From positions 41,311-105,310 of the forward strand of contig CACMBZ010000001.1 of NCBI GenBank assembly GCA_902612095.1: DNA of 64,000 bases, written 5' to 3'. A model generated the notes under the pieces. That model ran no database searches. It saw nothing but the letters and a program-made list of their open reading frames with translations, and was not told where the DNA came from. Of the stretch, positions 3,408 to 62,581 are shown one piece after another (positions within the stretch are counted from its first letter, which is position 1; each line of letters starts with the position of its first letter). The DNA is from an uncultured Pelagibacteraceae bacterium. GTDB taxonomy: Bacteria; Pseudomonadota; Alphaproteobacteria; Pelagibacterales; AG-422-B15. The position numbers and the translations under genes are program-made.

Positions 3408-4061
3408 TTAATTTGAAAATTTTTCTACTAAGAATTTAATTGCTATGTCTAAGCCGTCTTGAGCAATCGAATGCTGAGTGTTCGGGGAAATATGAGCTTT
3501 AACATCTAAACTTAATTCTGATAACTTTTTTTCAGCTTCAATAGTTTCTTGATAAGGAACCATAGGGTCCATATCTCCATGAATTAGGTAAATTGGAGGT
3601 TTAGACTTTAATTCATTTTTAAGAAGTTCTGGAGCAATTAACCTTCCTGAAAAGCCAACAATTGCTCTCATTGAATTTTCTCTTCTAAGGCCGACATGTA
3701 AACTCATCATTGTGCCTTGACTGAAACCTACGAGCGCCAAATTATCATCACTTAACTCATAATTCTTAAGTTGTTCATCAATAAAACCATTAAGTGTATC
3801 AGCTGCATTTAATACACCTTTCCAAATAGTTGCAGGGTCACCCGATTGAAAATCAAACCATTGATATCCCATTGGGTTTAATCCACATTTTTCTGGTGCG
3901 TTAGGTGATAAAAAAACCGCATCGGGCATTTGAGGCTGAATATAATTAGCAAGGCCAATCAGATCGTTGCCATCTGCGCCGTATCCGTGACAAAATATTA
4001 CTAGTTTTGAAGGTTTTGAAGAGTCTTGGGGTTCTAAAACTGGTCCACTTAAGATTGGCAT
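3408..4061 (-). CDS. alpha/beta hydrolase, phospholipase/carboxylesterase (acyl-protein-thioesterase-like) family
   Basis: 217 aa with GFSQG nucleophile elbow, HG oxyanion region (FCHGYGADG) and C-terminal D...H. Its start overlaps the ecm stop (TAATG). Confidence 0.7.
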   Translation of the reverse strand: MPILSGPVLEPQDSSKPSKLVIFCHGYGADGNDLIGLANYIQPQMPDAVFLSPNAPEKCGLNPMGYQWFDFQSGDPATIWKGVLNAADTLNGFIDEQLKNYELSDDNLALVGFSQGTMMSLHVGLRRENSMRAIVGFSGRLIAPELLKNELKSKPPIYLIHGDMDPMVPYQETIEAEKKLSELSLDVKAHISPNTQHSIAQDGLDIAIKFLVEKFSN

Positions 4062-6016
4062 TAAGATACTTTTCTCTCAACTATGCTCACAATGTCACTC
4101 ATTATATCTTTCAGCTGATAATCCTTTGGAGTATAAACTGCTTGAACTCCATTTTTAATTAAGATCTTTTCATCTTCTGTTGGAATTATACCTCCTACAA
4201 TTACCGGGATATCGTCTACTTTATTTTTTTTCATTTCATTCATAATTTCCTCGACAAGCTGCACATGAGAACCGGATAGAATAGAAAGTCCGATGATGTG
4301 TACATCTTCTTCAACAGATGATTTTACTATTTGTTCTGGTGTTAATCTAATTCCTTCGTACAAAACATCCATTCCACAATCACTCGCACTTACAGCAATT
4401 TGTTCTGCTCCACTAGAATGCCCGTCAAGACCAGGTTTGCCTACAAGAAATTTTATTCTTCTTCCCATCTTATCTGACAATGACTCAACTCTTTTACGTA
4501 TTGGGCTGTAATCGTCATTATTGGATGGTTGAATGTTAGTTATACCAGTCGGTGCTTTGAACTCACCAAAAACATCCCGAAGTACTTGAGACCATTCACC
4601 TGTTGTTACACCTGCTTTTGCAGCTGTAATAGAAGCTTCCATTATGTTATCTCCAGATTTTGCCGCTTCGCTTAATTGATTTAAAGCGCTATCAACCTGT
4701 TTTTGATCTCTGTTTTGTCTCCAATCAATAACTGCTTTTACTTGTTCATTTTCAATTTTTGGATCAATTGTCTCTATGCCTCCATCATTTGATACAAGAG
4801 GTGACTCTTCGGTCTCAACAAACTCATTAACTCCAACAACGATTTGCTCTTTATCATTAATTCTTTTAAGCCTTTCTTTTTGAGAATTGACCAATTCCTG
4901 TTTTAAGTAACCACTTTCAACTGCAGCTACTGCACCACCAATTGATTGAATGTGATTAAATTCTTTCATCGCAGTCTCTTTAAGATTTCTAACCTTTTCA
5001 TCAATCACTTCAGAGCCATTGAATATATCGTCAAAATGTAGGAGATCTGTTTCATACGCAACAATTTGTTGCAATCTTAAGGACCATTGTTGATCCCATG
5101 GTCTTGGCAATCCCATTGCTTCATTCCAAGCTGGTAACTGAACTGCTCTTGCTCTTGCATCCTTTGAGAGAACGACGCCTAGCATTTCAATTAATATTCT
5201 ATATACGTTGTTCTCAGGTTGTTGCTCAGTTAATCCAAGACTGTTTACTTGCATACCATACCTAAATCTTCTGTTTTTAGGATCCTTAACACTATATCTC
5301 TCTTTTGTAATTTCATTCCACAAAGATACAAATGCTCTCATTTTACACATCTCAGTAATAAATCTGATTCCAGAATTAACGAAGAAGCTTATGCGACCTA
5401 CTACATTTTCAAATTCTTCCTCGGATAACACATTTGAGGTTTTAACTTTATCGAGATACGCTACTGCAATTGAAAGACCAAAAGCTAATTCCTGCTCAGG
5501 AGTCGCGCCTACTTCAACTAAATGGTAAGGACATACATTGATTGGATTCCAATTTGGCATTTCTTTAAAAGTAAACGTAATCACGTCAGATATTATTTTT
5601 AAACTTGGATCAGGTGGAAGAATATATGTTCCTCGTGAGAGATATTCTTTTAAGACATCGTTTTGAGTTGTTCCCCGTAATTTATTTCTGTCTATGCCCT
5701 GTTCATCTGCAACGGCTACATATAAACTCAGCAACCATGCAGCTGTAGCATTAATGGTCATTGATGTATTCATTTTATCTAATGGAATTTGATTAAAAAG
5801 CGATCTCATATCGCCAATATGACAGATTGGAACGCCAACTTTGCCAACCTCCCCTTTAGCGAGAATGTGATCACTGTCATACCCAGTTTGAGTAGGTAAA
5901 TCGAACGCTACTGAGATACCTGTTTGACCCTTTGATAGGTTCTTAAGATAGAGTTCATTTGACTTTTTGGCAGACGAATGTCCTGCGTAAGTTCTTATGA
6001 GCCAAGGTTTATCCAT
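4061..6016 (-). CDS. ecm: adenosylcobalamin-dependent acyl-CoA mutase, ethylmalonyl-CoA mutase type (MeaA/Ecm)
   Basis: 651-aa single chain with mutase barrel plus C-terminal B12 domain (GKPGLDGHSSGAEQIA = DxHxxG). The N-terminus PWLIRTYAGHSSAKKSN...GQTGISVAFDLPTQTGYDSD carries RTYAGHS, which I recall as MeaA-like rather than the RQYAGFS of methylmalonyl-CoA mutase. Divergent from ccr. Confidence 0.8.
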   Translation of the reverse strand: MDKPWLIRTYAGHSSAKKSNELYLKNLSKGQTGISVAFDLPTQTGYDSDHILAKGEVGKVGVPICHIGDMRSLFNQIPLDKMNTSMTINATAAWLLSLYVAVADEQGIDRNKLRGTTQNDVLKEYLSRGTYILPPDPSLKIISDVITFTFKEMPNWNPINVCPYHLVEVGATPEQELAFGLSIAVAYLDKVKTSNVLSEEEFENVVGRISFFVNSGIRFITEMCKMRAFVSLWNEITKERYSVKDPKNRRFRYGMQVNSLGLTEQQPENNVYRILIEMLGVVLSKDARARAVQLPAWNEAMGLPRPWDQQWSLRLQQIVAYETDLLHFDDIFNGSEVIDEKVRNLKETAMKEFNHIQSIGGAVAAVESGYLKQELVNSQKERLKRINDKEQIVVGVNEFVETEESPLVSNDGGIETIDPKIENEQVKAVIDWRQNRDQKQVDSALNQLSEAAKSGDNIMEASITAAKAGVTTGEWSQVLRDVFGEFKAPTGITNIQPSNNDDYSPIRKRVESLSDKMGRRIKFLVGKPGLDGHSSGAEQIAVSASDCGMDVLYEGIRLTPEQIVKSSVEEDVHIIGLSILSGSHVQLVEEIMNEMKKNKVDDIPVIVGGIIPTEDEKILIKNGVQAVYTPKDYQLKDIMSDIVSIVERKVS

Positions 6017-6149: not shown

Positions 6150-7385
6150 ATGACCACTGAAGAAAAAGATATTTATGCAATAGGTGAAATTCCACCTCTT
6201 GGTTTTGTCCCTAAGAAAATGCACGCATGGGTAATCAGAAGAGATCGTCATGGAAACCCAATGCAATCATTTAAAGAAGAAGAATTTGATGTTCCTGAAG
6301 TTGGATCCAATGACGTTTTGATATTCGTAATGGCCGCGGGCGTAAACTACAACGGTGTTTGGGCTGGTCTTGGAAAACCTGTATCTACGCTTGATATGAC
6401 TAAAAAAGATTATCACATCGCCGGTTCTGATTGTTCTGGGATAGTTTGGAAAGTTGGTTCTGGTGTAAAAAAATGGAAAGTGGGCGACGAGGTAATCATT
6501 CATGGTATGCAGTGGGATCATGAGGATGCTGAGGTTAATGGTGGTGAACCAATGATATCAAAAACAAATAAGGTCTTTGGTTACGAAACAGCAGATGGAA
6601 CCTTTGCTCAATTCACAGCTGTTCAAGCGCACCAAGTTTTACGTAAGCCACCAAATTTATCTTGGGAAGAAAGTGGCTGTTATATGTTAACTCTTGCAAC
6701 TGCATATAGAATGCTATTTGGCCACGCTCCAAATGAATTAAAGCCAGGTGAGTTTGTTTTAATATGGGGCGCATCGGGTGGTCTTGGAAGCATGGCAGTA
6801 CAACTTGCAAAAATTGTTGGTGCTAAACCAATTGGTATTGTTTCTGATAACTCTAAAATTGATTATGTAAAAGATCTTGGAGCTGTAGGTGTTCTAAACA
6901 GAAAAGATTTTGATTGTTGGGGTGAACATCCTGATATTGATGACGCTGAAACATATGCAAACTATATGAAAGAAGTTAGAAAATTTGGAAAGGCCCTATG
7001 GGAATTTACAGGCAAGGGTAATAATGTTGACATGGTATTTGAGCATCCGGGCGAAACTACCGTTCCTGTCTCATGTTTTGTAGTAAAACCAGGAGGAATG
7101 GTTGTTATTTGTGCTGGTACCACAGGATATAATCTCACATTAGATGCTAGATATCTATGGATGCAAAGTAAAAGACTTCAGGGTTCACACTTTGGAAATT
7201 CAAAGCAAGCGAATGCAGCGAATGAACTTGTTATTGACGGTACATTAGATCCTTGTATGTCAGAGCTTTTTGCATGGAACAATATTCCTGATGCTCATGA
7301 AAAGATGCTTAACAATGAACATAAAGGTGGAAATATGGCTGTCCTTGTTGGCGCTGCAAAAGAAGGACAAAAATCTCTAAACTAG
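6150..7385 (+). CDS. ccr: crotonyl-CoA carboxylase/reductase
   Basis: 411-aa MDR-superfamily enoyl reductase with the long Ccr-type N-terminus (IGEIPPLGFVPKKMHAWVIRRDRHGNP) and GASGGLG NADPH site. Flanked by ecm and an Mcd-type dehydrogenase. Confidence 0.8.
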   Translation: MTTEEKDIYAIGEIPPLGFVPKKMHAWVIRRDRHGNPMQSFKEEEFDVPEVGSNDVLIFVMAAGVNYNGVWAGLGKPVSTLDMTKKDYHIAGSDCSGIVWKVGSGVKKWKVGDEVIIHGMQWDHEDAEVNGGEPMISKTNKVFGYETADGTFAQFTAVQAHQVLRKPPNLSWEESGCYMLTLATAYRMLFGHAPNELKPGEFVLIWGASGGLGSMAVQLAKIVGAKPIGIVSDNSKIDYVKDLGAVGVLNRKDFDCWGEHPDIDDAETYANYMKEVRKFGKALWEFTGKGNNVDMVFEHPGETTVPVSCFVVKPGGMVVICAGTTGYNLTLDARYLWMQSKRLQGSHFGNSKQANAANELVIDGTLDPCMSELFAWNNIPDAHEKMLNNEHKGGNMAVLVGAAKEGQKSLN

Positions 7386-7395
7386 AAAGTTAAAT

Positions 7396-9051
7396 ATGCA
7401 CGAACTAATTTCTAAATGTCAAAAATCCCTTATTACTGTCGATAAGTATTACGATGCTGCCCTGCAACATGTAAGAGGTGAGTTAATTGTTAATGGAAAA
7501 TTATCTCGTGATAATCTAGATAGGGAACAACATGCTGCACATGGCTTATCTTGGGTTGCTGCATATAGAGCTACTTTGAAAGAAATGGTTAATTGGGCCT
7601 CAAACCTAGACTCGACCGGGACGTTTAATGAAACAGAGCAATTAATTTTGCAAATTACTTTTTCGGAATACTGTGCGCAAATTAAATCTGGGATACCAAT
7701 GTCACAACTTGAGTATGTTCGTCCTCAAGATTTAGGATTAAAAAATGGTCTCTTTCAAGAAACAGGGACCGAAGAATTTAATGATCTGATTTTAAATGGC
7801 AATAGTACTGCAGATCGCATGAAACTTGCTCAATTATTAAAAGATGGATTTTCAAGTAAAAACTTTGGTAATAGCGGCCTAGATGAAACTACATCAATAA
7901 TTCAAGAACAATTTAGAAAATTTGTTGAAGATGATGTGACGCCAAACGCTCATGAATGGCATCTTAAAGATAACCTTATTCCGATGTCTGTAATTGAAAA
8001 AATGTCTGAACTTGGTGTATTTGGTCTGACGATACCTGAAGAATACGGTGGACTTGGAATGACAAGATTTGTTGACTGTGTGGTAACTGAGGAACTTGCA
8101 AGGGGTTATATTGGCATTGGCTCACTTGGTACACGCGGCGATATAGCTGCCGAATTATTGATTACAGGTGGCACCGAAGAACAGAAAAATAAATATTTAC
8201 CGAAAATTGCATCTGGTGAAATGCTTCCATGTGCTGTTTTAACCGAACCTCATTCAGGATCTGATATGGGCTCATTCAAAACAAGGGCAGTTGCAAATGG
8301 AGAGCACTATACAATCACAGGAAACAAGACATGGGTTACACATGGAGCTCGAAGTGACGTGATGATGTTATTAGCACGCACAAACCCTGATGAAAAAGGC
8401 TACAAAGGTTTATCAATGTTCCTTGCTGAAAAACAGAGGGGTGATGACGATAATATGTTCCCTGATGAGGGAATTAGTGGTGGCGAAATCGAGGTTTTAG
8501 GCTACAGAGGCATGAAAGAGTACGAAATGGCTTTTGACGGCTTTAAAGTTAAAAAAGAAAATTTACTTGGTGAAAAAGAAGGAAATGGCTTCAAACAAAT
8601 GATGGAAACTTTTGAAGCAGCTCGTATACAAACTGCAGCTAGAGCACTGGGTGTAGCACAATCAGCTTTTGAAACTGCAATGCAATACGCAATAGATAGG
8701 CTAGATACAAATGGCGGTTCGCTGTATGACAAACCTAGAAATGCATCGAAAATTGTTTCTATGGCTACTGAGATTATGGCTGCAAGACAATTAACTTATT
8801 ATGCTGCAAGAGAAAAAGATAAAGGACACAGATGTGATTTGGAAGCAGGAATGGCAAAAATGTTGGCTGCTAGAGTTGCTTGGGCATGCGCAGATAACGG
8901 AGTCCAAATTCATGGAGGTAATGGGTTTGCGCTTGAGTATCCAATAAGTAGAATTTTATGTGACTCCAGAATTTTAAATATATTTGAAGGAACTGCAGAG
9001 ATACAGGCCGACATTGTAACACGTCGACTTGTTTCTACGAACCCTGCTTAA
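7396..9051 (+). CDS. mcd: acyl-CoA dehydrogenase with about 170-aa N-terminal extension, (2S)-methylsuccinyl-CoA dehydrogenase type
   Basis: 551 aa against about 380-400 for ordinary ACADs. The ACAD core runs from about residue 170 (HEWHLKD...GLTIPEEYGG...IFEGTAEIQ). Lies 10 nt downstream of ccr. Confidence 0.7.
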   Translation: MHELISKCQKSLITVDKYYDAALQHVRGELIVNGKLSRDNLDREQHAAHGLSWVAAYRATLKEMVNWASNLDSTGTFNETEQLILQITFSEYCAQIKSGIPMSQLEYVRPQDLGLKNGLFQETGTEEFNDLILNGNSTADRMKLAQLLKDGFSSKNFGNSGLDETTSIIQEQFRKFVEDDVTPNAHEWHLKDNLIPMSVIEKMSELGVFGLTIPEEYGGLGMTRFVDCVVTEELARGYIGIGSLGTRGDIAAELLITGGTEEQKNKYLPKIASGEMLPCAVLTEPHSGSDMGSFKTRAVANGEHYTITGNKTWVTHGARSDVMMLLARTNPDEKGYKGLSMFLAEKQRGDDDNMFPDEGISGGEIEVLGYRGMKEYEMAFDGFKVKKENLLGEKEGNGFKQMMETFEAARIQTAARALGVAQSAFETAMQYAIDRLDTNGGSLYDKPRNASKIVSMATEIMAARQLTYYAAREKDKGHRCDLEAGMAKMLAARVAWACADNGVQIHGGNGFALEYPISRILCDSRILNIFEGTAEIQADIVTRRLVSTNPA

Positions 9052-9057
9052 TTTTAT

Positions 9058-9261
9058 ATGCCAGGTTTTTTATATTACTTATTAATTCCTATATCACTTC
9101 TTGCTGTTTTAGCGGTTTTAGGAACAGGTATTTACGCTATGTTTAAAGGTGGAGATTTTAATAAAAAGTACTCAAATAAACTTATGAGACTTAGAATTAC
9201 TCTGCAGTTTATTGCGATTGTAATAATTATGAGTGCTCTTTACTTTTCAACTAGTTCTTAA
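9058..9261 (+). CDS. HIG1-domain twin-transmembrane-helix small protein
   Basis: 67 aa with two TM helices separated by MFKGGDFNKKYSNKLMRLRI, as in the hypoxia-induced-protein N-terminal domain family. Confidence 0.7.
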   Translation: MPGFLYYLLIPISLLAVLAVLGTGIYAMFKGGDFNKKYSNKLMRLRITLQFIAIVIIMSALYFSTSS

Positions 9262-9824
9262 TGGTAAAACTCAATAAAATTTATACAAGGGCCGGTGATA
9301 AAGGCAAGACAGGGTTAGTATCTGGTAAACGTGTATTTAAGGATAATATAAGAATAAAAGCATACGGGACTGTCGATGAACTGAATTCTATACTTGGAAT
9401 TTTAAACACGAGTGCCAAATCATCTCTGAAAAAAATAATTTCAGAAATACAAAATGACTTATTTGATTTAGGTGCTGATCTCGCAACTCCAGTTGAAAAA
9501 AAACCAAAATATAAACCGCTACGCGTTACAAGCAAGCAGGTTACAAGAATTGAAAAAACAATTGACAAATATAACGCAAAGTTAGCACCCCTTAATTCTT
9601 TTGTGCTACCGGGAGGGTCTCAGTCTGCGGCATTTTTACACAACGCAAGAACTGTAACGCGCCGAGCTGAAACTCAGATTGTCGCACTTGCAAAAAAAGA
9701 AGAGGTCAACGAAGAAGCAATTAAATATATCAATCGGTTATCTGATTTATTTTTTGTTTTATCGAGAGTTGAAAACAACAATGGCAAAAAAGATATTTTG
9801 TGGAAACCTGGTAAGAATGTATAA
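9261..9824 (+). CDS. pduO: ATP:cob(I)alamin adenosyltransferase, PduO/MMAB type
   Basis: The N-terminal IYTRAGDKGKTGL motif and 187-aa length are typical of PduO-type ATR. Its start overlaps the upstream stop. Confidence 0.85.
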   Translation: MVKLNKIYTRAGDKGKTGLVSGKRVFKDNIRIKAYGTVDELNSILGILNTSAKSSLKKIISEIQNDLFDLGADLATPVEKKPKYKPLRVTSKQVTRIEKTIDKYNAKLAPLNSFVLPGGSQSAAFLHNARTVTRRAETQIVALAKKEEVNEEAIKYINRLSDLFFVLSRVENNNGKKDILWKPGKNV

Positions 9825-9867: not shown

Positions 9868-10617
9868 ATGAAAATTTTAGTCCCTGTCAAAAGAGTTATT
9901 GATCCGTACGTTAACATCAGAGTTAAATCTGATCAAACTGGTGTTGAAACTGAGAATGTAAAAATGTCTATGAACCCCTTTTGTGAAATTGCAGTTGAAG
10001 AGGCAATTAGATTAAAAGAAGCTGGTAAAGCTGAAGAGATCATCGCTGTTTCAATCGGCAATCAATCTTGTCAAGAAACTATTCGAACGGCTCTTGCAAT
10101 GGGAGCTGACCGAGGAATACATGTGCTCACAGAAGAAAAAGTTGAGCCTATTTCAATTGCAAAAATTCTAGCAAAAATTTGTGAAAGCGAGTCACCTGGA
10201 CTAGTGATATCCGGAAAGCAAGCGATTGATGGAGATAACAATCAAACTGGTCAGATGCTTGCTGCACTAACAGATATGCCTCAAGGAACTTTTGCTTCAA
10301 AAGTAGAAATCGACGGCGACAAGGTTAAAGTCACCAGAGAAATAGATGGAGGTTTACAAACTGTAAATCTGAATATGCCCGCTATTATTACCACCGATTT
10401 AAGATTGAATGAACCTAGGTATGCTTCTCTGCCCAATATAATGAAAGCAAAAAAGAAGCCAATTGATCAAAAATCTCCTGAAGACTATGGAGTTGATGTT
10501 ACACCTAGAGTAAGTATTTTAAAAGTTATTGAACCTCCAAAGCGTCAGGCTGGAATCAAAGTCGAGAATGTTGGAGATCTTGTAGAAAAATTAAAAAATG
10601 AGGCAGGAGTTATATGA
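9868..10617 (+). CDS. etfB: electron transfer flavoprotein beta subunit
   Basis: 249 aa; [19 protein letters not shown]... is the canonical EtfB N-terminus. Confidence 0.9.
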
Positions 10618-11543
10618 CATCACTTTTTTATATCGAGCATGCAAACGGAAAGGTCAGCGATCAAAGTTTAAAAGCTATAACAGCAGCGTCTCAAATTGAA
10701 GGCGATGTTCACGGACTTATTGTGGGCTCAAATATTGATGAAGCTGTTGCGGAGGCTTCAAAAATTAATGGATTGAGTAAATTACTCCACTTGGATGATG
10801 CAGCATTTGATAATGTTTTGGCTGAAAAACTTACTCAAGTTATTTTTAATATTGCCGGCGATTATGACTACTTTTTGGCTGCAGCAACAACAACTGGTAA
10901 AAATGTGATGCCTAGACTTGCTGCAAAACTTGATGTCTCTCAAATATCAGAGATCGTTGCTGTTGAAAGTGCAGATACATTTATTAGAACAATTTATGCT
11001 GGTAACGCTATTGCAACTGTACAAACATCTGACGCAAAGAAAGTTCTCACGGTTAGACCAACTGCTTTCAAAGCTGCAACAACCGACTCTGCTGAATGCG
11101 AGGTTGCAAAGATAAATGCTGAGAATATTCCATCAATTTCAGAATTTGTGGGCGAAGAGCTAACAAAATCTGATAGGCCAGAACTTACTTCTGCAAAGAC
11201 AATTATTTCAGGTGGACGTGGAATGCAAAATGGAGAAAACTTTGAACTTTTGGATAAAGTAGCTGAAAAACTTGGAGCTGCTGTTGGAGCATCTCGAGCT
11301 GCCGTTGATGCAGGCTTTGTTCCAAATGATTATCAAGTCGGGCAAACTGGTAAAGTTGTAGCACCCGAACTGTACATAGCGGTCGGAATATCAGGAGCGA
11401 TCCAGCACTTGGCTGGCATGAAAGACTCAAAAATTATAGTTGCCATAAATAAAGATGAAGAAGCACCTATATTTGATGTGGCAGACTATGGTTTGGTAGC
11501 AGACTTGTTTCAAGTTCTTCCCGAATTAGAACAAGCCTTATAA
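10614..11543 (+). CDS. etfA: electron transfer flavoprotein alpha subunit
   Basis: 309 aa with C-terminal FAD domain (ISGGRGM...[11 protein letters not shown]...[29 protein letters not shown]). 4-nt overlap with etfB. Confidence 0.9.
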
Positions 11544-19477: not shown

Positions 19478-19513
19478 AAACCGCCAAACTTAGTTGTTGG
19501 GCGGTTTTTTTTT
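19478..19513 (+). terminator. rho-independent terminator (riboswitch expression platform)
   Basis: AAACCGCCAA (19478-87) pairs with TTGGGCGGTTT (19497-507) with one bulged G and a 9-nt loop. It runs into a tract of 9 T (19505-13), 10 nt before the metX ATG. Confidence 0.7.
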
Positions 19514-19523
19514 GGAAAAAATT

Positions 19524-21247: not shown

Positions 21248-22008
21248 ATATGACTGAAATACTAATTGTTAAATGCTTAAGCGATAATTATGCTTATATA
21301 TACTCAAATAAAAATGGGGATGCATTTGTTGTTGATCCTTCTGAAGCAGGTCCTGTAATTGATGTTCTAAATAAACACAGACTTAATTTAAAATTCATAC
21401 TAAATACTCATCATCATTTTGATCATGTAGGTGGAAATTTTGAACTTAAAGAAAAGTATGAGTGCAAAATAGTTGGCAGCAAAAAAGATTTTGAGAGAAT
21501 ACCAGGAATTGATATACAGGTTTCAGAGGGTGATATTTGGAATTTTGATGAACACAATGCTCAGATAATTGAAATACCTGGGCATACTACGGGCCACATC
21601 GCTTTTTATTTTGAATCCCTAAAACTTGTTTTTACAGGTGACACGCTATTTTCACTTGGATGTGGTAGACTTTTTGAAGGTTCACCAGAAATGATGTGGA
21701 AATCTCTTACAAAATTAAGGGATCTACCTGATGAAACAAAAATTTACTGTGGCCATGAATATACTTTAAGTAATGGAAATTTTATAAGCTCTATTTACCC
21801 GTCGGATGAAATAGAATCAAAAATAGACCGTCTGAAAAGCCTAAATAAACAAAACATACCATCTATTCCATCAACAATTGGGGATGAAAAGAGATTAAAT
21901 GTTTTCTTAAAAGCAGATGATGATGATTTGATCAAGTCACTGGGGCTTACGGGAAAAAGTCCAGAAGAAGTATTCGGTCACATAAGAAATCTCAAAGATT
22001 CCTTTTAA
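21244..22008 (+). CDS. gloB: hydroxyacylglutathione hydrolase (glyoxalase II)
   Basis: Metallo-beta-lactamase fold with THHHFDHVGG and length 254 aa. Confidence 0.85.
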   Translation: MNMTEILIVKCLSDNYAYIYSNKNGDAFVVDPSEAGPVIDVLNKHRLNLKFILNTHHHFDHVGGNFELKEKYECKIVGSKKDFERIPGIDIQVSEGDIWNFDEHNAQIIEIPGHTTGHIAFYFESLKLVFTGDTLFSLGCGRLFEGSPEMMWKSLTKLRDLPDETKIYCGHEYTLSNGNFISSIYPSDEIESKIDRLKSLNKQNIPSIPSTIGDEKRLNVFLKADDDDLIKSLGLTGKSPEEVFGHIRNLKDSF

Positions 22009-22727
22009 GTAAAATATTGTCCACCGTTTGCAGATATCGTAGAACCTGTTATAAAGCCCGCTTCATCACTAGCAAGGAATGTAACTATTCGTGAAACCTC
22101 ATCAACTGTTCCAAGCCTTCCTACAGGAATTTTTCCAATTAAACTTTTCATAAAATCCTCGGAGGCATCGGCTAGAATTTCAGTATCGATATAACCAGGT
22201 GCAATAGCGTTAACTGTAATATTCTTTCTAGCAGTTTCTTGCGCTAAGGCTTTGGTAAAACCTAGTAAACCAGCTTTTGCCGCACTATAATTTATTAGAC
22301 CCATCTCACCTTTTTGACCGTTAATAGAAGAAATGCTGATTATTCTTCCAAAAGATTTTTCTCTCATGCCTTCAAGTACACATCTTGTCATATAAAAAAC
22401 TGAATCTAAGTCAGTTCTTATTACATCATCCCATTGTTCAACTGACATTTTATGAGCCATTGAAGCTTTGGAAATGCCGGCATTATTCACTAAAATGTCA
22501 ACAGTACCCAGCTTATCAGCAACTTGCTTTACGCCCGCTTCACATGCAGCTGCATCAGCAACATTCCATTGAAATACCTCAATACCGTTTTCGGATGAAA
22601 ACTTATTTGCTGCATCTGAATTTGAACTATAGGTTGCAGCAACATTGCACCCCTCCTTTTTTAAAGCAAGAGATATTGCAGCACCTATTCCCCTTGTTCC
22701 TCCAGTTACTAACGCTACTTTAGACAT
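22005..22727 (-). CDS. phaB: acetoacetyl-CoA reductase (SDR)
   Basis: 240 aa; VALVTGGTRGIGAAI, NNAGI, YSAAKAG. Lies directly downstream of the thiolase. Confidence 0.8.
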   Translation of the reverse strand: MSKVALVTGGTRGIGAAISLALKKEGCNVAATYSSNSDAANKFSSENGIEVFQWNVADAAACEAGVKQVADKLGTVDILVNNAGISKASMAHKMSVEQWDDVIRTDLDSVFYMTRCVLEGMREKSFGRIISISSINGQKGEMGLINYSAAKAGLLGFTKALAQETARKNITVNAIAPGYIDTEILADASEDFMKSLIGKIPVGRLGTVDEVSRIVTFLASDEAGFITGSTISANGGQYFT

Positions 22728-22736
22728 AATTTTCTC

Positions 22737-23909
22737 CTATCGTTCGACGCACAAAGCGACACCCATGCCTCCACCAATGCATAATGTGGCAAGTCCTTTT
22801 TTAGCGTCCTGTCTTTTCATTTGATTTAATAATGTTACAAGAATTCTAGCTCCTGACGCACCAATTGGATGTCCTATAGCAATCGCTCCTCCGTTAACAT
22901 TAACTTTTGAAACATCCCATCCCATTTCTTTATTTACTGCACAAGATTGAGCGGCAAATGCTTCATTTGATTCAATTAAATCTAAATCAGAAACATCCCA
23001 CCCTGCTTTATCAAGAGCTTTTCTGCTTGCAGGTATAGGTCCTGTTCCCATCACAGATGGATCAACCCCAGCACTTGACCAGGATACAATTCTTGCCATA
23101 GGCTCAAGGTTTCTTTTTTTCATTTCATCTGAGGACATTACTGCCAGAGCAGCTGCGCCATCGTTTATACCACTTGCATTTGCTGCTGTAACTGTTCCCT
23201 CTTTTGCAAATGCAGGTCTTAAAGATGAGATTTTTTCTAATTGAACATTGTCTTTAATATATTCATCACTATCAAAAACTACTGTCTCTTTTCTTGATGG
23301 GACTTCAACTGGAACAATTTCATCCTTAAATACTCCATCTGCTTTAGCCTTACTTGCTTTCTGTTGTGAGTTAAAAGCAAATTCATCTTGTTGATCTCTA
23401 GTAATTTGCCATTGTTGTGCAACATTTTCAGCAGTTGTTCCCATGTGATATCCATTAAAAGCATCCCACAAACCATCTTTGATCATTGAGTCGATCATCT
23501 TATCATCACCCATTTTAGTACCATTTCTTAGGTGCATACAGTGCGGGGATTGACTCATACTTTCTTGTCCACCAGCAATAATAATATTTGCATCGCCATT
23601 CTTTATAGATTGATAGGCCAAAGCAACACTTCTTAAGCCAGATCCACAAACTTGATTAACTAGCCATGCTGGGGTCTCTTTATTTAAACCAGCATTTATT
23701 GATGCTTGTCTAGCAGGGTTTTGACCAGTTGCTGCAGTTAGTACTTGTCCAAGTATTACCTCATCTACATCACCACCTTCAATGCCTGATCTATTAAGCG
23801 TTTCTTTTATAACTATTGTGCCTAAATCGTGTGCTGGCATACCTGATAAAGATCCATTAAATGAACCAACGGCTGTTCTAACGGCAGATGTAATAAATAC
23901 TTCACTCAT
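22737..23909 (-). CDS. phaA: acetyl-CoA acetyltransferase (biosynthetic thiolase)
   Basis: 390-aa thiolase II ([41 protein letters not shown]). Confidence 0.85.
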
Positions 23910-26740: not shown

Positions 26741-26744
26741 TAAA

Positions 26745-55773: not shown

Positions 55774-55841
55774 GATCTTAATAATTTTAATAGAGTCTGA
55801 TATTGTAGATTAATTGTAATCTATGGCAATGGCGGAAAAGT

Positions 55842-56075
55842 ATGAGAAAACTTGATCTTCACGGCTTCACACTCGAAGAGGCTTATCAAGAATTCACTGA
55901 TTTTATTTACGCTGCTTATCAAGAGAATATTTCTAAAGTGGAAATAATAACTGGAAAAAGTGGTCGCATAAGGCAAGAATTTCCTCATTGGGCAGAGAGC
56001 AGTCATCAAATAAGGTATATCGAAGCTAGCTGGCACGAGGGCAGTTATATCGTGAAAATTCAAAAAAAGTATTGA
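55842..56075 (+). CDS. stand-alone Smr-domain protein (77 aa)
   Basis: LDLHGFTLEEA...VEIITGKSG matches the Smr LDLHG...G(K/R)G pattern. Confidence 0.7.
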   Translation: MRKLDLHGFTLEEAYQEFTDFIYAAYQENISKVEIITGKSGRIRQEFPHWAESSHQIRYIEASWHEGSYIVKIQKKY

Positions 56076-56144
56076 GACCATGATCTGTCATTTTGGCAGA
56101 CGTATATGAGTTTAAATCAAAGTAAACAACATTATATGTAATGT

Positions 56145-56201
56145 TCAATGGTGGGTAAGTAATATTTTCATCAAATCCCCTAATCAACTACCCACCATTG
56201 A
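56145..56201. repeat. perfect 13-bp inverted repeat (TCAATGGTGGGTA / TACCCACCATTGA) around a 31-nt loop
   Basis: Read directly: arms at 56145-56157 and 56189-56201. Flanked by the direct repeats GTAAACAA (56122-29, 56202-09) and AATGTT (56140-45, 56212-17). Confidence 0.9.
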
Positions 56202-56293
56202 GTAAACAAATAATGTTGAATTATTTTATTGCGGTTTCGGTAATCATACTAATACTCAGTACAGTCACGTTTTTTGAAATTACAATAATTTAG

Positions 56294-57070
56294 TTATTGT
56301 TGGGCAATCATCTGCTTTATTCCAGCAATCGCTTTTGCAGGATTCAAACCCTTGGGACATGCTTGAGTGCAATTCATAATCGTATGGCATCTGTATACTT
56401 TAAAAGTATCATCTAATTCTTTTAATCTCTCTTTTCTTTCCTCATCACGGCTATCTTGTAGCCAGCGATATGACTGAAGCAGGACTGCAGGGCCCAAATA
56501 TTTGTCACTGTTCCACCAATAACTTGGGCATGAAGTTGAGCAACAAGCACACAGAATACATTCATAAAGGCCATCTAATTTTTCTCGGTCATTTCTTGAT
56601 TGTATATTTTCAGTATCATTCGCATTTTGTTTCTTGTTCATAAGCCATGGCTTGATAGACTTTAATTGCGTATAAAGTGTTTTTAAATTTGTAACCAAAT
56701 CTTTTATAACTGGCATGTGAGGCAGAGGATAAATTTTTATATCACCTTTCACATCACTGATTGCTTTAGTACAAGCAAGTGTATTTGTTCCATCAATATT
56801 CATTGCGCAAGAACCACATATGCCCTCGCGACATGATCTTCTAAAGGTTAATGAAGTATCAATTTCACTTTTGATTTTCATAACTGCGTCCAATACCATT
56901 GGGCCACAATCGTCTAGATCAACTTCATAAGTATCCATTCTTGGGTTTTTTGTGTCATCAGGAGACCAACGGTAGATTTTGAATTTTTTAGTATTCCCAT
57001 TGCTTTTTTCAGACTTGTAATAATCACCGTCTGTTAATTTAGAATTATTGGGAAGATTAAACTGAACCAT
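56294..57070 (-). CDS. sdhB: succinate dehydrogenase iron-sulfur subunit
   Basis: 258 aa; the three Cys clusters [36 protein letters not shown]. Confidence 0.95.
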
Positions 57071-58845
57071 TAATAAACTCTGGCCTTTGGTGCAATATAT
57101 TTAACTTCATTTGATAAAGTGTATTCGTGAACTGATCTATAATCCAGCTCACAACTCTTATCGTTCAGCCATGACATTGTATGCTTCATCCAATTTTTAT
57201 CATCTCTTTCCTTATAATCTTCTCGAGCGTGAGCTCCTCTACTTTCTTTTCTATTTAGTGCAGAGTTCATTGTAACTACAGCTTGTGCAATTAGATTTTT
57301 ATATTCGAGCGTTTCTAACAAATCAGTATTCCATATAAGTGATTTGTCTTTAATTTTAATATTCTCTGAGTTTAACCAAGTTTCTTCAATGAGTTTTTTT
57401 CCTTCAGACATAATCTCATCATCTCTAAAAACAGCGCAGTGTTTCTGCATAACTTTCTGCATTTGAGACCTTAATTCTGAAGTTGAAATATCCCCATCAG
57501 AAGATCGTGTACTATCAAACCTTGCAATGACTTCATCGACGACATGGCCGGGAATTTCCTTATTTGGTTCATCTTTATTTACCGTATCATTTATTCTATC
57601 TGCAGCTGCTTTGCCAAAAACTACTAAATCAATAAGAGAATTTGATCCGAGTCTGTTTGCACCATGAACACTCACACAAGCAGCTTCACCAACAGCCATC
57701 AGACCCTGTACGATCGTTTCATTTCCTTTTTCGAGGTTCATTACTTCTCCATGAAAGTTTGTTGGAATTCCACCCATATTATAATGAACTGTAGGTATAA
57801 TGGGAATTGGCTCTTTAGTTACATCTACCCCTGCGAAAACTTTTGCGGATTCTGAAATACCAGGTAATCTTTCTTCCAATATATCTGAGTCTATATGATC
57901 AAGATGAAGATAAGCATGGTCCTTATCTTTACCAACACCTCTGCCCTCTAAAATTTCTTTTGTTATAGAACGTGACACAACATCTCTTGAAGCTAAGTCT
58001 TTCGCTGATGGTGCGTATCTCTCCATGAAACGTTCGCCTTCACTGTTTACTAAATAGCCACCTTCTCCTCTTGCGCCCTCTGTTATAAGACAACCAACAC
58101 CATAAATACCTGTTGGATGAAATTGAACAAATTCCATATCTTGCAAAGGTAAGCCAGCTCTTAAAACCATAGCGTTACCATCGCCTGTGCAAGTGTGAGC
58201 TGAAGTTGCAGAAAAATAAACACGGCCATATCCACCAGAAGCTAGTATTGTTTGTTTAGAATTAAATACATGTAATTTACCGTCCTCTAAACACCATGCA
58301 ACAACGCCCCTGCATTCACCCTCAACCATTAATAAGTCCAAAACAAAATATTCAATATAATAGTCAACGTCGTGTTTTAATGATTGCCCGTATAAAGTAT
58401 GAATTATTGCATGGCCAGTTCGATCAGCGGCAGCACATGTTCTTTGTGCAGTACCTTCACCATAATTTTTGGTCATCCCCCCAAAGGCTCTTTGATAAAT
58501 TTTTCCATCCTCTGTTCGACTGAATGGAACTCCATAGTTCTCTAATTCTAAAACAGCTTTTGGTGCATTTTTGCACAAGTACTCAATTGCATCCTGATCC
58601 CCAAGCCAATCAGAGCCTTTCACGGTATCATACATGTGCCATCTCCAATCATCATCACCCATATTTCCAAGTGCAGCAGAGATGCCTCCCTGTGCTGCAA
58701 CCGTGTGACTTCTAGTTGGGAATACTTTTGAAATACAAGCAGTCTTATAACCATTCTCAACAGCGCCTACTGTCGCTCTCAAACCAGATCCACCAGCACC
58801 AACAACAACTACATCATAATCGTGATATTCAATTTCGTAATTCAT
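57070..58845 (-). CDS. sdhA: succinate dehydrogenase flavoprotein subunit
   Basis: 591 aa; [13 protein letters not shown] and the covalent-FAD His context ([10 protein letters not shown]). Confidence 0.95.
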
Positions 58846-58849
58846 TAAG

Positions 58850-59179
58850 TTAACCTATAAAAATTAGTAGTAGAGACAAACAAACAAAAATTAGTATTAG
58901 TAAAAAAAATATTGAGATTATTACATTTAATACTTTTTTAACCACATCTGAGTGAACATAATCATCAAGGATTTCGTGCACACCAGTATTCATATGAATT
59001 AATCCTAAGACCGTGAAAATCAATATGAACCCTAAACCCCATAAGTTGCTAAATTCACTCAAAATTAAATGATATGGCAGAGTGGAAAGGTGTATTATTT
59101 TTATAAATAAAAAAGCAACGAGTGGTAGCAGTAAAATCGTGCTCCATCGATGAAGTTTCCAAGTATTTTTGGCAGACAT
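58850..59179 (-). CDS. sdhD: succinate dehydrogenase membrane anchor subunit
   Basis: 109 aa, 3 TM; position between sdhC and sdhA. Confidence 0.8.
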
Positions 59180-59183
59180 AGAA

Positions 59184-59561
59184 TTAATATCCCATCATTA
59201 TTAAAACCCAAAATAGAACAGTGAGCAAAACAGTAAACAAAATTGTAATCCAACCTGTCAATTTGGCAGTATTTAATTCAAGCCCAATACCAACGTCCCA
59301 GAATAAGTGCCTTAAGCAGTTTAAAAAATAAAATAAATATGAAAACGTAAGACCTATTAATATTGTTCTTATAAATATATTTCCTGATAAAGAAATTATA
59401 AATTGAAAAGTTTCTTCGCCAGCGCTAATTGAATATAAAAATATTATTAATATGATTACACCTAATGATGAAACAATACCCGTTATTCTATGAAGAATTG
59501 ATAGTATCGATGTAATTTGCCATCTATAAACTTGTAAATGTGGTGATAAGGGACTGCTCAT
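59184..59561 (-). CDS. sdhC: succinate dehydrogenase cytochrome b556 subunit
   Basis: 125 aa; SPHLQVYRWQITSILSILHRITG motif. Confidence 0.85.
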   Translation of the reverse strand: MSSPLSPHLQVYRWQITSILSILHRITGIVSSLGVIILIIFLYSISAGEETFQFIISLSGNIFIRTILIGLTFSYLFYFLNCLRHLFWDVGIGLELNTAKLTGWITILFTVLLTVLFWVLIMMGY

Positions 59562-59609: not shown

Positions 59610-61568
59610 TTATTTTTTTCTTGGAATTAAAGCCCAATAATCAAGACTTAACAAAACGGACGGATCAAAACGCTTGTTACTATCTTGATGTTGAAACTGA
59701 TAAGCCTGTGCATCGCCAATTCCATTTGTTCTGACTCGAATAGCACCTAATGATTCTGATACTTCAACTTTATCTAAAATTAAACTCCAGGCAAAAACAG
59801 TTGTTCCCGCAAAACACGGTGATGCGTGGGTTCCACCGTTGATCGCAATAATTTTAAAAGCATTTGAAAGTCCATTAAACGATAAAGCTCTTGTTAAACT
59901 TATAACATGACCGCCGTAAACAATTCTTTTTCCAAACCTACCACCTTTTTCAACAAAATGGTTAAAGTGAACTTTTGCATTGTTCTGGTATAATTTTGTT
60001 GCCATCATATGTTCAGCTTCCTCAACTGTCATACCATCAATATGATTTATTTTTTCGTTAATAGAATAATCCTCATAACAAAGATCAGAGCCTGAGGCTT
60101 TATAATCATATCCTGTACAATCAAAATCATATTCTTTTGCAATTTCTACAACCTCCTCACTTGTAAGCTCTTTATTTAATTCTGGTATAGACGGTTCTGG
60201 TTTATTTAGGTTTCTATTTTTTTTTCTAACCATAACCCACCTTTTATAATCAATAACTGGTTCGCCATGCTGGTTAGTGCCTACAGAGTGAACATAAACT
60301 ACTCCATTTTCTCCACTTGAATTTTCTTTAATGCCAATCACTTCTGAAGTTGAGCTAATTGTATCACCTGGATAAGCTGGCTTTAAAAACTTACATTCTG
60401 CGTAACCTAAATTAGCAATTGCATTTAAAGAGATATCGGGGACAGTTTTACCAAAAGCTATATTAAATAAAAGAAAATCGTCAATTGGCGATTTTTCTAA
60501 TGAGAGTTTTTTTGCAAACTCATCTGAGCAGTGAAGGGCGTACCTTGAACCGTATAAAGCCGTATAAAGTGCACAATCTCCATATGTTATTGTTCGTGGA
60601 GTTGCATGTATTATTTTTTGTCCTAGCTTAAAATTTTCAAAAAAATTACCAATTTTATATTTACTTGAAGAAGTTTGTATAACTTCTGATTGATCTAGTT
60701 CTGTAACTTTTGAAACAAGCAATTCTGCTTCTATAATTCGTTTTGCATGATTTACGTGTAATTCCTCTATCTGACTGCCTTCAAACGTAATTACTCCAAC
60801 ATTTGGATCCTTTTTTCTTGCATCCTCAAAGGCTGCAACAATTCGTTTTGCTTTGTCTAGTTGTTCAGCCGTAGGGGTAAATATTTTATTGCATATTTGT
60901 ATTTGTCCGGGGTGTATTAAGGTTTTACCATCAAATCCGAGACCATGACTATAGATGCACTCTTCTTCAAAGCCATTAGCGTCTCTGATGTCATTAAAAA
61001 CTCCATCAAGTAGTGATAATTTGTAGGCTTTTGTTGCCATCATACATTTCTCAAAACTTGTGACTAATGCAGTTCTTTTTAGTTCTTCCTCTATACCCAA
61101 CTCTGCAGACAAGTCATTAGTTCCCATTACAAAACATTTTAAGCATTTTGATGATTTTGCAATATCATACGCGTTTACAATGGATAGAGCTGTTTCCATC
61201 ATAACCCAAATTTTAGTTTCTTTATTTTTAAGATATTTTTCAAAAGCTTTAACATCTTTAGCTTCATTTACTTTAGGAATTAATATTGCATCGGGATTAC
61301 ATTTGTCCAAGACCTTAATATCTATTTTACCATCATCAGTATCCAAAGCATTTACTCTTATCACCTGTTCCTTATTTTTGTTTACACCAGAATTTATAAT
61401 TTCGATAATTGCTGCGCGTGCATCATTTCTGGCATTTGCAGCTACCGAGTCTTCTAAGTCGTAAATAATTGCATCTACATCAAGCGTACTGCTTTTTTTT
61501 AATGCTTTTGGATTAGATCCAGGAACATAAAGTACGCTTCTTCTTGGTTTTCTTACATCTTGTCTCAT
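59610..61568 (-). CDS. fusion protein: N-terminal CitE-like/HpcH malyl-CoA (beta-methylmalyl-CoA) lyase or thioesterase domain plus C-terminal MaoC double-hotdog mesaconyl-CoA-hydratase-like domain
   Basis: One uninterrupted 652-codon ORF. Residues about 10-283 are CitE-like: RSVLYVPGSNPKAL, DLEDSV, WVMMET, MGTNDL, GFDGKTLIHPGQ. Residues 284-305 form a linker. Residues 306-652 are a MaoC-type two-hotdog enzyme of about 347 aa, the size of Mch: IIHATPRTITYGDCALYTALYGSRYAL, GKTVPDISLNAIANLGYA, YPGDT. Confidence 0.8.
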   Translation of the reverse strand: MRQDVRKPRRSVLYVPGSNPKALKKSSTLDVDAIIYDLEDSVAANARNDARAAIIEIINSGVNKNKEQVIRVNALDTDDGKIDIKVLDKCNPDAILIPKVNEAKDVKAFEKYLKNKETKIWVMMETALSIVNAYDIAKSSKCLKCFVMGTNDLSAELGIEEELKRTALVTSFEKCMMATKAYKLSLLDGVFNDIRDANGFEEECIYSHGLGFDGKTLIHPGQIQICNKIFTPTAEQLDKAKRIVAAFEDARKKDPNVGVITFEGSQIEELHVNHAKRIIEAELLVSKVTELDQSEVIQTSSSKYKIGNFFENFKLGQKIIHATPRTITYGDCALYTALYGSRYALHCSDEFAKKLSLEKSPIDDFLLFNIAFGKTVPDISLNAIANLGYAECKFLKPAYPGDTISSTSEVIGIKENSSGENGVVYVHSVGTNQHGEPVIDYKRWVMVRKKNRNLNKPEPSIPELNKELTSEEVVEIAKEYDFDCTGYDYKASGSDLCYEDYSINEKINHIDGMTVEEAEHMMATKLYQNNAKVHFNHFVEKGGRFGKRIVYGGHVISLTRALSFNGLSNAFKIIAINGGTHASPCFAGTTVFAWSLILDKVEVSESLGAIRVRTNGIGDAQAYQFQHQDSNKRFDPSVLLSLDYWALIPRKK

Positions 61569-62581
61569 TTAGATAAATGTTCCTCAATTAGCATTTCAGC
61601 GATTTGGATTGTATTTAAAGCAGCGCCTTTCCTTAAATTATCAGAAACTACCCAAATAGATAATCCATTTTTTGTAGACGTATCCTCTCGAATTCGCGAT
61701 ACATACGTGTCATCATTTCCAGCACACTCTTTTGGAGTTACATAACCTCCATCAGCTCTTTCATCAAGTAGTGTGCACCCAGGAGCATTTTTAATAGCTT
61801 CACGTGCTTCTTCTACTGAAATTTTGTTTTCAAACTCAATATTTACAGCTTCAGAGTGACCAATAAATACAGGAACGCGAACACATGTAGCGCTAAAGCT
61901 GATCTCACTACTTAAAATTTTATGAGTTTCTTGTCTCATTTTTAATTCTTCTTTTGTGTATCCATCATCCATGAATTTATCAATATGAGGTATGACATTA
62001 AAGGCAATTGGTTTGGTAAACTTAACATTATCTTTAATATCATCGGAGAACATATTTTTTGTTTGCTCAAACAACTCGTCCATACCAGCCTTACCTGCCC
62101 CCGAAACAGATTGATAAGTTGATACAATAACTTTTTTTATTTTTGAAATTTCGTGCAATGGTTTTAAGGCAACAACCAATTGAATTGTTGAGCAGTTTGG
62201 ATTAGCAATTATATTTCTTTTTTTATAATTATTTAGATCACTTGGGTTAACCTCAGGTACGACCAGAGGAATATCTTCTTCCATTCTAAAATGACTAGAG
62301 TTATCTATAACAATACAGTTTTTTTCAGCAAACTTTGGTGCCCATTCCTTTGAGGTACTAGCTCCTGCAGAGAAGAGTGCCAATTCTACTTTTGAAGGAT
62401 CAAACTTTTCAATAGATTCTACAATTAGTTTATCCTCCCCAAATTCAATTTCCATGCCTTCACTTCTACTAGAAGCTACAGGAAATATTTTTGACGCATC
62501 ATATTTTTTTTCAGAGAGAATATTTAACATTTCTCTTCCGACATTTCCTGTGGCACCCACTATAGCAATATTAAAATTCAT
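61565..62581 (-). CDS. asd: aspartate-semialdehyde dehydrogenase
   Basis: 338 aa; IAIVGATGNVGREM, NPNCSTI (active-site Cys). Its stop overlaps the fusion-gene ATG (ATGA). Confidence 0.9.
   Translation of the reverse strand: MNFNIAIVGATGNVGREMLNILSEKKYDASKIFPVASSRSEGMEIEFGEDKLIVESIEKFDPSKVELALFSAGASTSKEWAPKFAEKNCIVIDNSSHFRMEEDIPLVVPEVNPSDLNNYKKRNIIANPNCSTIQLVVALKPLHEISKIKKVIVSTYQSVSGAGKAGMDELFEQTKNMFSDDIKDNVKFTKPIAFNVIPHIDKFMDDGYTKEELKMRQETHKILSSEISFSATCVRVPVFIGHSEAVNIEFENKISVEEAREAIKNAPGCTLLDERADGGYVTPKECAGNDDTYVSRIREDTSTKNGLSIWVVSDNLRKGAALNTIQIAEMLIEEHLSK

Follow-up and report, generated by a model that had tools for sequence, protein, structure and literature searches.

A 64,000-nucleotide stretch of DNA from an uncultured Pelagibacteraceae bacterium (contig CACMBZ010000001.1, positions 41,311 to 105,310 of the forward strand; below, the window means this whole stretch) raises the question of why one long open reading frame (ORF) should encode both a CitE-like domain and a mesaconyl-C1-CoA hydratase (Mch), and what such a protein does. 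Our analysis suggests that the product is probably a bifunctional Mcl2-Mch enzyme of the ethylmalonyl-CoA (EMC) pathway, in which the Mcl2 part belongs with (3S)-malyl-CoA thioesterase, and that it was made by in-frame fusion of abutting mcl2 and mch genes.

The fused ORF, its locus and its origin

The ORF and its immediate neighbors, in window coordinates, are the following:

59610..61568, minus strand: fused mcl2-mch ORF, ATG start, 652 amino acids plus stop codon, uninterrupted
61565..62581, minus strand: asd, upstream of the fusion; the asd stop and the fusion start overlap by 4 nt
56294..59561, minus strand: sdhC-sdhD-sdhA-sdhB, downstream of the fusion after a 48-nt gap
59184..59561, minus strand: sdhC, the first gene 3' of the fusion

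In the window annotation, leuB lies upstream of asd, and mmsA, mdh, sucCD, sucAB and lpdA are found further downstream, beyond the sdh genes. The initial annotation had described an uninterrupted 652-codon ORF between asd and sdhCDAB; ORF finding and the flanking genes agree with this and place the gene on the minus strand. A frame of this length is far beyond chance expectation in DNA of 33% GC. The motifs that had been quoted for it were all located in the translation (DLED at residues 37-40, MGTNDL at 148-153, GFDGKTLIHP at 211-220 and HATPRTITYGDCALYTALYG from approximately residue 321). Pfam matches on the 652-residue protein were HpcH_HpaI (PF03328) at 10-220 (1.3e-42) and MaoC/MC_hydratase at 305-603. 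Together with matches to solved structures, these support the earlier description of a single polypeptide in which a CitE-like domain is joined to a full double-hotdog mesaconyl-CoA hydratase.

The same architecture was present throughout Pelagibacterales (SAR11). One fused ORF of 652-654 residues, with 75-99% identity, occurred in all loci fetched from single-amplified and metagenome-assembled genomes (SAGs and MAGs; 39/39), and no stop codon or frameshift was found near codons 284-305 in any of them. The window is itself SAR11 DNA, with 97-99% identity to Pelagibacteraceae single-cell genomes. The 120 best protein clusters represented the same fusion, either full-length or cut at contig ends, and some of these were on contigs of 1.3-1.4 Mb; the fused ORF was also seen on hundreds of metagenomic contigs from many studies. 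The gene order leuB-asd-fusion-sdhC-sdhA was kept in 36-39 of the 39 SAR11 loci, and linkage to asd in every one. In unsaturated comparisons, omega was approximately 0.05-0.07 for each half, indicating strong purifying selection. An assembly or sequencing error that deleted the stop codon between two genes might be suspected from non-SAR11 relatives, which have two genes, in some cases in one frame with a stop codon alone between them. This explanation is extremely improbable, as the identical fused ORF was recovered from 39 independent SAG/MAG loci and hundreds of metagenomic contigs, and the reading frame is preserved through the linker between the halves even in lineages with just 27-59% identity there. 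Because 39 independent loci and more than 100 protein clusters carry the same ORF, the fusion is real and conserved and is not an assembly artefact.

A promoter and terminator scan of the locus gave hits at or below chance level and was uninformative on operon structure; the same scan found no terminator between the fusion and sdhC. An Rfam scan yielded no match near the fusion locus. Our literature search found no paper describing an mcl2-mch fusion in SAR11, and the only database names for the fused protein were "aldolase/citrate lyase family protein" and "2-methylfumaryl-CoA hydratase". Both enzymes and their pathway are well known; what is new is the fused architecture, a modest and lineage-specific one.

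The two halves are joined by a short segment:

60657..60719, minus strand: linker, residues 284-304 (LVSKVTELDQSEVIQTSSSKY), located where the split relative has a stop codon and a 4-nt spacer

In the AlphaFold2 (AF2) model, residues 288-308 had pLDDT below 35 and formed the lowest-confidence segment. Omega in the linker was near 1 among SAR11 lineages. It behaves like a flexible tether that evolves near neutrally.

Outside SAR11 the two genes were separate. In 22 non-SAR11 alphaproteobacterial loci (from Rhizomicrobium, Rhodospirillales, Magnetospirillaceae, Thalassospiraceae, Hyphomicrobiales and Rhodobacteraceae MAGs), the CitE-like gene and mch were co-directional and adjacent, mostly -4 to +20 nt apart, and in several of these loci both genes were in one frame with nothing but a stop codon between them. 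Neighboring genes of these relatives were called with a GC3 > GC1 > GC2 filter, which guards against spurious antisense ORFs in high-GC genomes. In Rhodospirillum rubrum, Rru_A1200, annotated as malyl-CoA thioesterase, adjoins Rru_A1201 (Mch), and the latter was needed for growth on butyrate (mutant fitness -3.42). Both this pair and the 22 split loci match the proximity of mch and mcl2 that the initial annotation had mentioned for Rhodobacter sphaeroides. Matches by tblastn that spanned residues 7-651 in non-SAR11 taxa were considered as candidate fusions and rejected, since ORF-level analysis resolved them into two adjacent genes. Among the best 150 representatives of the N-terminal half (N-half), only the SAR11 cluster was fused to Mch.

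The non-SAR11 loci share the order asd ... [Mcl2-like][mch], followed by sdhCDAB or by a gene for an AFG1-like ATPase. Because the split loci share the asd/sdh order, the neighborhood in SAR11 is an alphaproteobacterial synteny that was inherited. Among relatives without the fusion, the nearest (P0241, loci L079-L082; 57% identity) is on contigs of 33% GC that read leuCD-leuB-asd-[287 aa]-4 nt-[355 aa]-sdhC-sdhD, with the two genes in different frames. Since a low-GC relative with the exact synteny of the window is still split, the fusion arose within the Pelagibacterales radiation, through loss of the stop codon and adjustment of the frame.

Separately, in some Alphaproteobacteria mch was next to sdhCDAB with no adjacent Mcl2-like gene (L054, L071 and L078, versus L056-L076), and therefore the mch-sdh linkage either predates the mcl2-mch pairing or is independent of it. 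In Phreatobacter-type genomes, mch was found among genes for TctC, an aldo-keto reductase, TenA and an ECF-sigma factor.

Identity of the two halves

The C-terminal half (C-half) comprises the following features:

59613..60656, minus strand: C-half, residues 305-652, double-hotdog mesaconyl-C1-CoA hydratase (Mch/MeaC)
59967..59984, minus strand: codons N529...H534 (QNNAKVH), hydratase catalytic Asn/His pair, equivalent to MeaC N226/H231

Residues 301-651 aligned from end to end with two solved Mch enzymes (Chloroflexus aurantiacus 4E3E, 8e-129, covering residues 2-351 of the half; Methylorubrum extorquens MeaC 8HGN, 1e-116), with approximately 55-60% identity of the C-half to these enzymes, and its Pfam families were PF19315 and PF01575. 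In MeaC, N226 and H231 form the catalytic pair, and F71, S79, N85, R142, Y248 and G249 bind the malyl moiety (PMC10164722). All eight active-site residues are identical in the fusion (F372, S380, N386, R443, N529, H534, Y551 and G552). By these sequence features, the C-half is assigned as a bona fide Mch (EC 4.2.1.148).

The weak similarity of the two halves to an itaconate degradation module should be mentioned here. As an alternative, the initial annotation had raised a fusion of itaconyl-CoA hydratase (Ich) with (S)-citramalyl-CoA lyase (Ccl), and NCBIfam models do give some signal, 159 bits for RipC_Ccl and 97 bits for RipB_Ich. However, both scores are far below the equivalog cutoffs of NF038241/NF038242 (97 versus 340 bits for RipB and 159 versus 375 bits for RipC), and the C-half is a double-hotdog Mch of 350 residues rather than a RipB of approximately 175 residues. 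In addition, a characterized haloarchaeal Mch was inactive on itaconyl-CoA (PMC5592240), the N-half clusters apart from RipC and has Glu in place of the catalytic Asp, and the window and locus annotation contained no itaconate CoA-transferase gene nearby. We regard the itaconate reading as very improbable.

The features of the N-half are:

60720..61568, minus strand: N-half, residues 1-283, CitE-like TIM barrel plus C-terminal lid, Mcl2 cluster
61356..61358, minus strand: codon R71, catalytic Arg, equivalent to MCLR Arg76
61194..61196, minus strand: codon E125, Mg2+ ligand, equivalent to MCLR Glu141
61113..61118, minus strand: codons N151-D152, equivalent to MCLR Ala167-Asp168; D152 is an Mg2+ ligand
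60765..60767, minus strand: codon E268, Glu at the position of the superfamily-wide catalytic Asp

Residues R71, E125 and D152 align with MCLR R76, E141 and D168, and thus the N-half retains its catalytic Arg and its two Mg2+ ligands. The residue before the Mg2+-binding Asp is Asn151 (GTND), whereas Mcl1 has GAAD or GVAD; this Ala is 100% conserved in both clusters of malyl-CoA lyases (MCLs) (Zarzycki & Kerfeld, PMC3832036). Glu268, which lies within QIEELH and is invariant in our alignment A1, occupies a position where all five solved lyase-type (non-Mcl2) references have Asp. An Asp-to-Glu change is the sole exception at this position in the superfamily and is confined to the cluster of the Rhodobacter sphaeroides malyl-CoA thioesterase, Mcl2 (PMC3832036). 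The motif E-x-L-H was found in 145 of the 150 nearest 50%-identity representatives, drawn from 1.84 billion proteins, and the signatures GTND...[IV]ENLH were common to Rhodobacteraceae proteins named "(3S)-malyl-CoA thioesterase" in UniRef, JGI and NCBI. The MCL insertion is lacking as well: the N-half has approximately 17 residues where 5UGR (Mcl1) has approximately 40, and the alignment splits into two pieces, while short CitE-like proteins such as CLYBL align with the N-half contiguously, end to end. The pLDDT of the N-half in the AF2 model was approximately 80-93. In a neighbor-joining tree, which is a distance tree only and was built from sequences other than the R. sphaeroides Mcl2 itself, the N-half of the window and the thioesterase-named proteins fell together in a clade of 146 of the 159 sequences; this clade excluded CLYBL, RipC, Mtb CitE and both Mcl1 references. 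The fusion also did not reach the cutoff of TIGR01588, the CitE equivalog (195 versus 443 bits), and its neighbors are asd and sdhCDAB, with no citCDEFXG.

The initial annotation had placed the N-domain nearer to Mcl2 than to Mcl1, and Glu268, Asn151, the missing insertion and the neighbor-joining clade all agree with that placement. Because of Glu268, the signatures shared with named relatives, the tree and the failure of three lyase-defining features, we assign the N-half, by sequence criteria, to the Mcl2 ((3S)-malyl-CoA thioesterase) cluster and not to the lyases.

The same residues bear on another proposal of the initial annotation, namely that the N-half is a lyase acting on beta-methylmalyl-CoA (or citramalyl-CoA) and that the fusion channels mesaconyl-CoA to glyoxylate plus propionyl-CoA. 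In favor of it, the catalytic Arg and Mg2+ ligands are intact, lyase and thioesterase chemistry share one active site in CLYBL, Rv2498c and haloarchaeal enzymes, and the best PDB match of the N-half by E-value is an Mcl (5UGR). However, Glu268 takes the position of the lyase Asp through which the enolate is protonated and deprotonated, the invariant Ala has given way to Asn151, the MCL insertion is lacking, and a canonical Mcl1 is separately encoded in Pelagibacterales (see below). With three MCL-defining features failing and a separate lyase at hand, the channelling proposal is not upheld, and we consider a lyase function of the N-half quite improbable.

One further Mcl2-type protein was observed. 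P0258 (868 aa) has a domain of this type at residues 4-281 (GTND, MVERLH), followed by an Ala/Pro-rich C-terminal region of approximately 580 residues that is unrelated to Mch and includes a predicted hydrophobic stretch. It may represent a different architecture or possibly an artefact of gene calling in high-GC DNA.

Pathway context and proposed function

Genes for other steps of the EMC pathway, which the initial annotation had not covered, were detected in the same window:

4061..6016, minus strand: B12-dependent acyl-CoA mutase, single-chain and Ecm-sized, divergent from ccr; matched by subfamily-level models only
6150..7385, plus strand: Ccr, crotonyl-CoA carboxylase/reductase (TIGR01751 equivalog, 558 bits versus a cutoff of 379)
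7396..9051, plus strand: Mcd, (2S)-methylsuccinyl-CoA dehydrogenase with an N-terminal extension (6ES9 at 8.5e-203 over residues 15-546; Pfam ACAD)
9261..9824, plus strand: PduO-type cobalamin adenosyltransferase (TIGR00636)
9868..10617 and 10614..11543, plus strand: electron transfer flavoprotein (ETF) beta and alpha (Pfam ETF domains)
22005..22727, minus strand: phaB, acetoacetyl-CoA reductase, one of the first EMC steps (TIGR01829, 321.6 bits versus a cutoff of 302.1)
22737..23909, minus strand: phaA, thiolase, one of the first EMC steps (thiolase family matches)

We take 6ES9 to be a solved methylsuccinyl-CoA dehydrogenase; its PDB record says only "Acyl-CoA dehydrogenase". Homologs of Ccr with 84-100% identity were abundant and carried names from Pelagibacteraceae and Pelagibacterales, and the ecm-ccr-mcd-adenosyltransferase-etfBA cluster recurred on other SAR11 contigs. 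The co-occurrence of the fusion and Ccr is given by this window itself. The premise that SAR11 is without the EMC pathway was considered and rejected, as it is contradicted by the ccr, mutase, mcd and pha genes at the far end of the window. An argument that the absence of B12 enzymes excludes the pathway was likewise dropped, since the window encodes both a B12 mutase and a PduO-type adenosyltransferase. SAR11 has been described as B12-auxotrophic (PMC9296465). The gene cluster implies, at the level of gene content, adenosylcobalamin use and EMC capability in these SAR11 genomes.

No second CitE-like gene was found in the window or in the SAR11 loci extending ±10 kb. To search for Mcl1, metagenomes were scanned with an A/T-biased back-translation of the Mcl1-specific motif DGPFGDF. 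Most ORFs that were hit (76/80) were Mcl1-type, with the invariant Ala, the insertion and the catalytic Asp, and many were on marine contigs of 27-35% GC. These ORFs (P0538-P0612; loci L114, L147, L134 and L139) fall in clusters of 4159, 1731 and 962 members, and the 4159- and 962-member clusters include "CoA ester lyase [Pelagibacterales bacterium SAG-MED03]", "[Candidatus Pelagibacter sp.]" and "[Candidatus Pelagibacterales bacterium]". NCBI names such proteins 'CoA ester lyase' and JGI names them 'citrate lyase beta subunit'. Judged by these residues and names, SAR11 has a predicted canonical Mcl1 of its own. Mcl1-type lyases were also seen in other low-GC marine lineages (L118 and L128, with P0621 and P0636; L144 and L096, with P0568-P0575), and clusters named 'Gammaproteobacteria bacterium' have Mcl1-type proteins of 313-315 residues.

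With these components, we infer the following roles. PhaA, PhaB, Ccr, the Ecm-like mutase and Mcd with ETF, all encoded in the window, would supply other EMC steps. The C-half would catalyze the reversible hydration of mesaconyl-C1-CoA (2-methylfumaryl-CoA) to erythro-beta-methylmalyl-CoA with its Asn529/His534 pair. The separate Mcl1 would then cleave beta-methylmalyl-CoA to glyoxylate and propionyl-CoA and subsequently condense glyoxylate with acetyl-CoA to malyl-CoA. Finally, the N-half, dependent on Mg2+ and using Glu268, would most likely hydrolyze (3S)-malyl-CoA to malate and CoA. The initial annotation had mentioned a combination of hydratase and thioesterase activities as one option; both identities are supported, but the two steps are not consecutive, as two Mcl1 reactions intervene. 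Since the fused steps are separated in this way, substrate channelling is not expected. The R. sphaeroides Mcl2 is a trimer (PMC3832036), and MeaC is also a trimer; because both partners are trimeric, a fusion is sterically plausible, and the fused protein may itself be a trimer or a hexamer. Most likely, the fusion does no more than hold the expression of the two enzymes at 1:1, in a streamlined genome where their genes were already coupled in translation.

Several points weigh against the assignment of the fusion as an EMC enzyme. The mutase scores below the MCM equivalog cutoff, and its Ecm label derives from its size, its position beside ccr and this very shortfall. The AF2 model of the C-half was of low confidence, with a shallow multiple sequence alignment. 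The evidence for Mcl1 comes from Pelagibacterales at large, through named cluster members, and not from the window's own genome. In the EMC scheme the thioesterase is step 14 and the hydratase step 8, so that fusing them offers no obvious kinetic benefit, and thioesterase specificity has been established for a single member of the cluster, R. sphaeroides Mcl2. SAR11 has isocitrate lyase and malate synthase, and a route to malate through malyl-CoA would then be partly redundant. For the presence of both routes together there is a precedent in Paracoccus denitrificans (PMC6747724).

The location beside sdhCDAB suggests yet another explanation, in which the two halves act consecutively on the C4 series, clearing side-products of SucCD and KGDH as a salvage of CoA esters linked to the tricarboxylic acid (TCA) cycle, possibly as an extra role beside the EMC pathway. 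The haloarchaeal Mch works in both directions between fumaryl-CoA and (S)-malyl-CoA, and does so with considerable efficiency, and the Chloroflexus Mch has approximately 5% malyl-CoA dehydratase activity (PMC5592240). Succinyl-CoA ligase and KGDH are documented to release malyl-CoA, a toxic side-product that is cleared by the CitE-like thioesterase CLYBL. Moreover, the pair lies beside sdhCDAB or the AFG1-like ATPase gene in several alphaproteobacterial lineages, and in SAR11 it is less than ~6 kb from mdh-sucCD. However, the EMC gene set and a separate Mcl1 account for the pair without a new function, the same sdh-linked pair of R. rubrum works in the EMC pathway, the sdh synteny may be mere inherited gene order, and this explanation would require a source of fumaryl-CoA. 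We therefore find a salvage role improbable.

A related idea is that the merger is not neutral and that the halves are functionally coupled through (S)-malyl-CoA. Three versions can be envisaged. The tethered Mcl2 domain may take malyl-CoA before Mch dehydrates it to fumaryl-CoA; the pair may turn stray fumaryl-CoA or malyl-CoA from TCA enzymes into malate; or a C3-symmetric trimer of the fusion may dock the Mcl1 hexamer to form a metabolon at the end of the EMC pathway. Coupling in any of these forms is, in our view, unlikely. If true, any version would explain why the pair was kept beside sdhCDAB across Alphaproteobacteria and became fused in the most streamlined lineage.

The bifunctional EMC enzyme thus remains our preferred interpretation. 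Of the initial annotation as a whole, the fusion and the likeness to Mcl2 hold, while lyase channelling and the itaconate module do not. SAR11 bacteria are among the most abundant in the ocean, and their assimilation of C2 and C3 compounds matters for marine carbon flux. The fusion and the ecm-ccr-mcd cluster together indicate that these SAR11 genomes carry an apparently complete EMC pathway, with a B12-dependent mutase and a cobalamin adenosyltransferase, and this EMC gene set is a more noteworthy by-product of the analysis than the fusion itself. The current names of the fused protein are generic or half-correct, and pathway reconstructions can consequently miss the thioesterase step or mis-score the fusion as a lyase. 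The fusion is useful for annotation, and it links Mcl2 with Mch as a naturally occurring Rosetta stone. It is also a handy single-protein construct for studies of the Asp-to-Glu switch that seems to divide thioesterase from lyase chemistry.

Other features of the window were observed. An alphaproteobacterial S-adenosylmethionine (SAM) riboswitch (RF00521; 19411-19487, plus strand; 44.7 bits versus a gathering score of 36) is directly upstream of an alpha/beta-hydrolase ORF of 381 residues (19494-20639, TTG start), which may be a homoserine O-acyltransferase. Between mmsA and sdhB, no convincing gene was seen over 520 nt (55774-56293), which is a long gap in a streamlined genome; only an 86-residue ORF (55821-56081, minus strand) lies there, and Rfam gave no match at the gathering threshold. 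Finally, a 412-residue ORF with a TTG start (25580-26818, minus strand) matched no Pfam family at E <= 1e-8 and overlaps the end of a DUF1015 gene (26745-27959) by approximately 70 nt; its start codon may be mis-assigned.

Comparison with known systems

The N-half most closely resembles the R. sphaeroides Mcl2 cluster, with which it shares the TIM barrel, the catalytic Arg, the Mg2+ ligands, the cluster-specific Glu and the GTND and DGKTLIHP signatures. Like other members of this cluster (e.g., Rru_A1200), it is found beside mch as part of an EMC gene set. Unlike them, the SAR11 domain, a predicted thioesterase, is covalently joined to Mch through a linker of ~20 residues, has ~40% identity to the Rhodobacteraceae members and carries a SAR11-specific insertion of two residues (NPxVGVI) directly before the lid strand.

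CLYBL is also a short CitE-like protein (aligned with N-half residues 8-278) and has malyl-CoA thioesterase chemistry. It differs in keeping the catalytic Asp (D320), in having G-G-E-D instead of G-T-N-D and in falling outside the Mcl2 clade. With the Mcl1/MCL lyases the N-half shares the superfamily, the metal site and 35-40% local identity, but it is without their ~23 extra insertion residues and has Asn151 rather than Ala, and Glu rather than the catalytic Asp.

The hydratase half, for its part, is like the solved Mch/MeaC enzymes (4E3E and 8HGN) in its full-length alignment, its double-hotdog fold and the identity of the catalytic pair and the six substrate-binding residues. What sets it apart from them is its placement: the SAR11 hydratase is the C-terminal domain of a 652-residue protein, linked through its N-terminus to the lid domain of a CitE-like partner.

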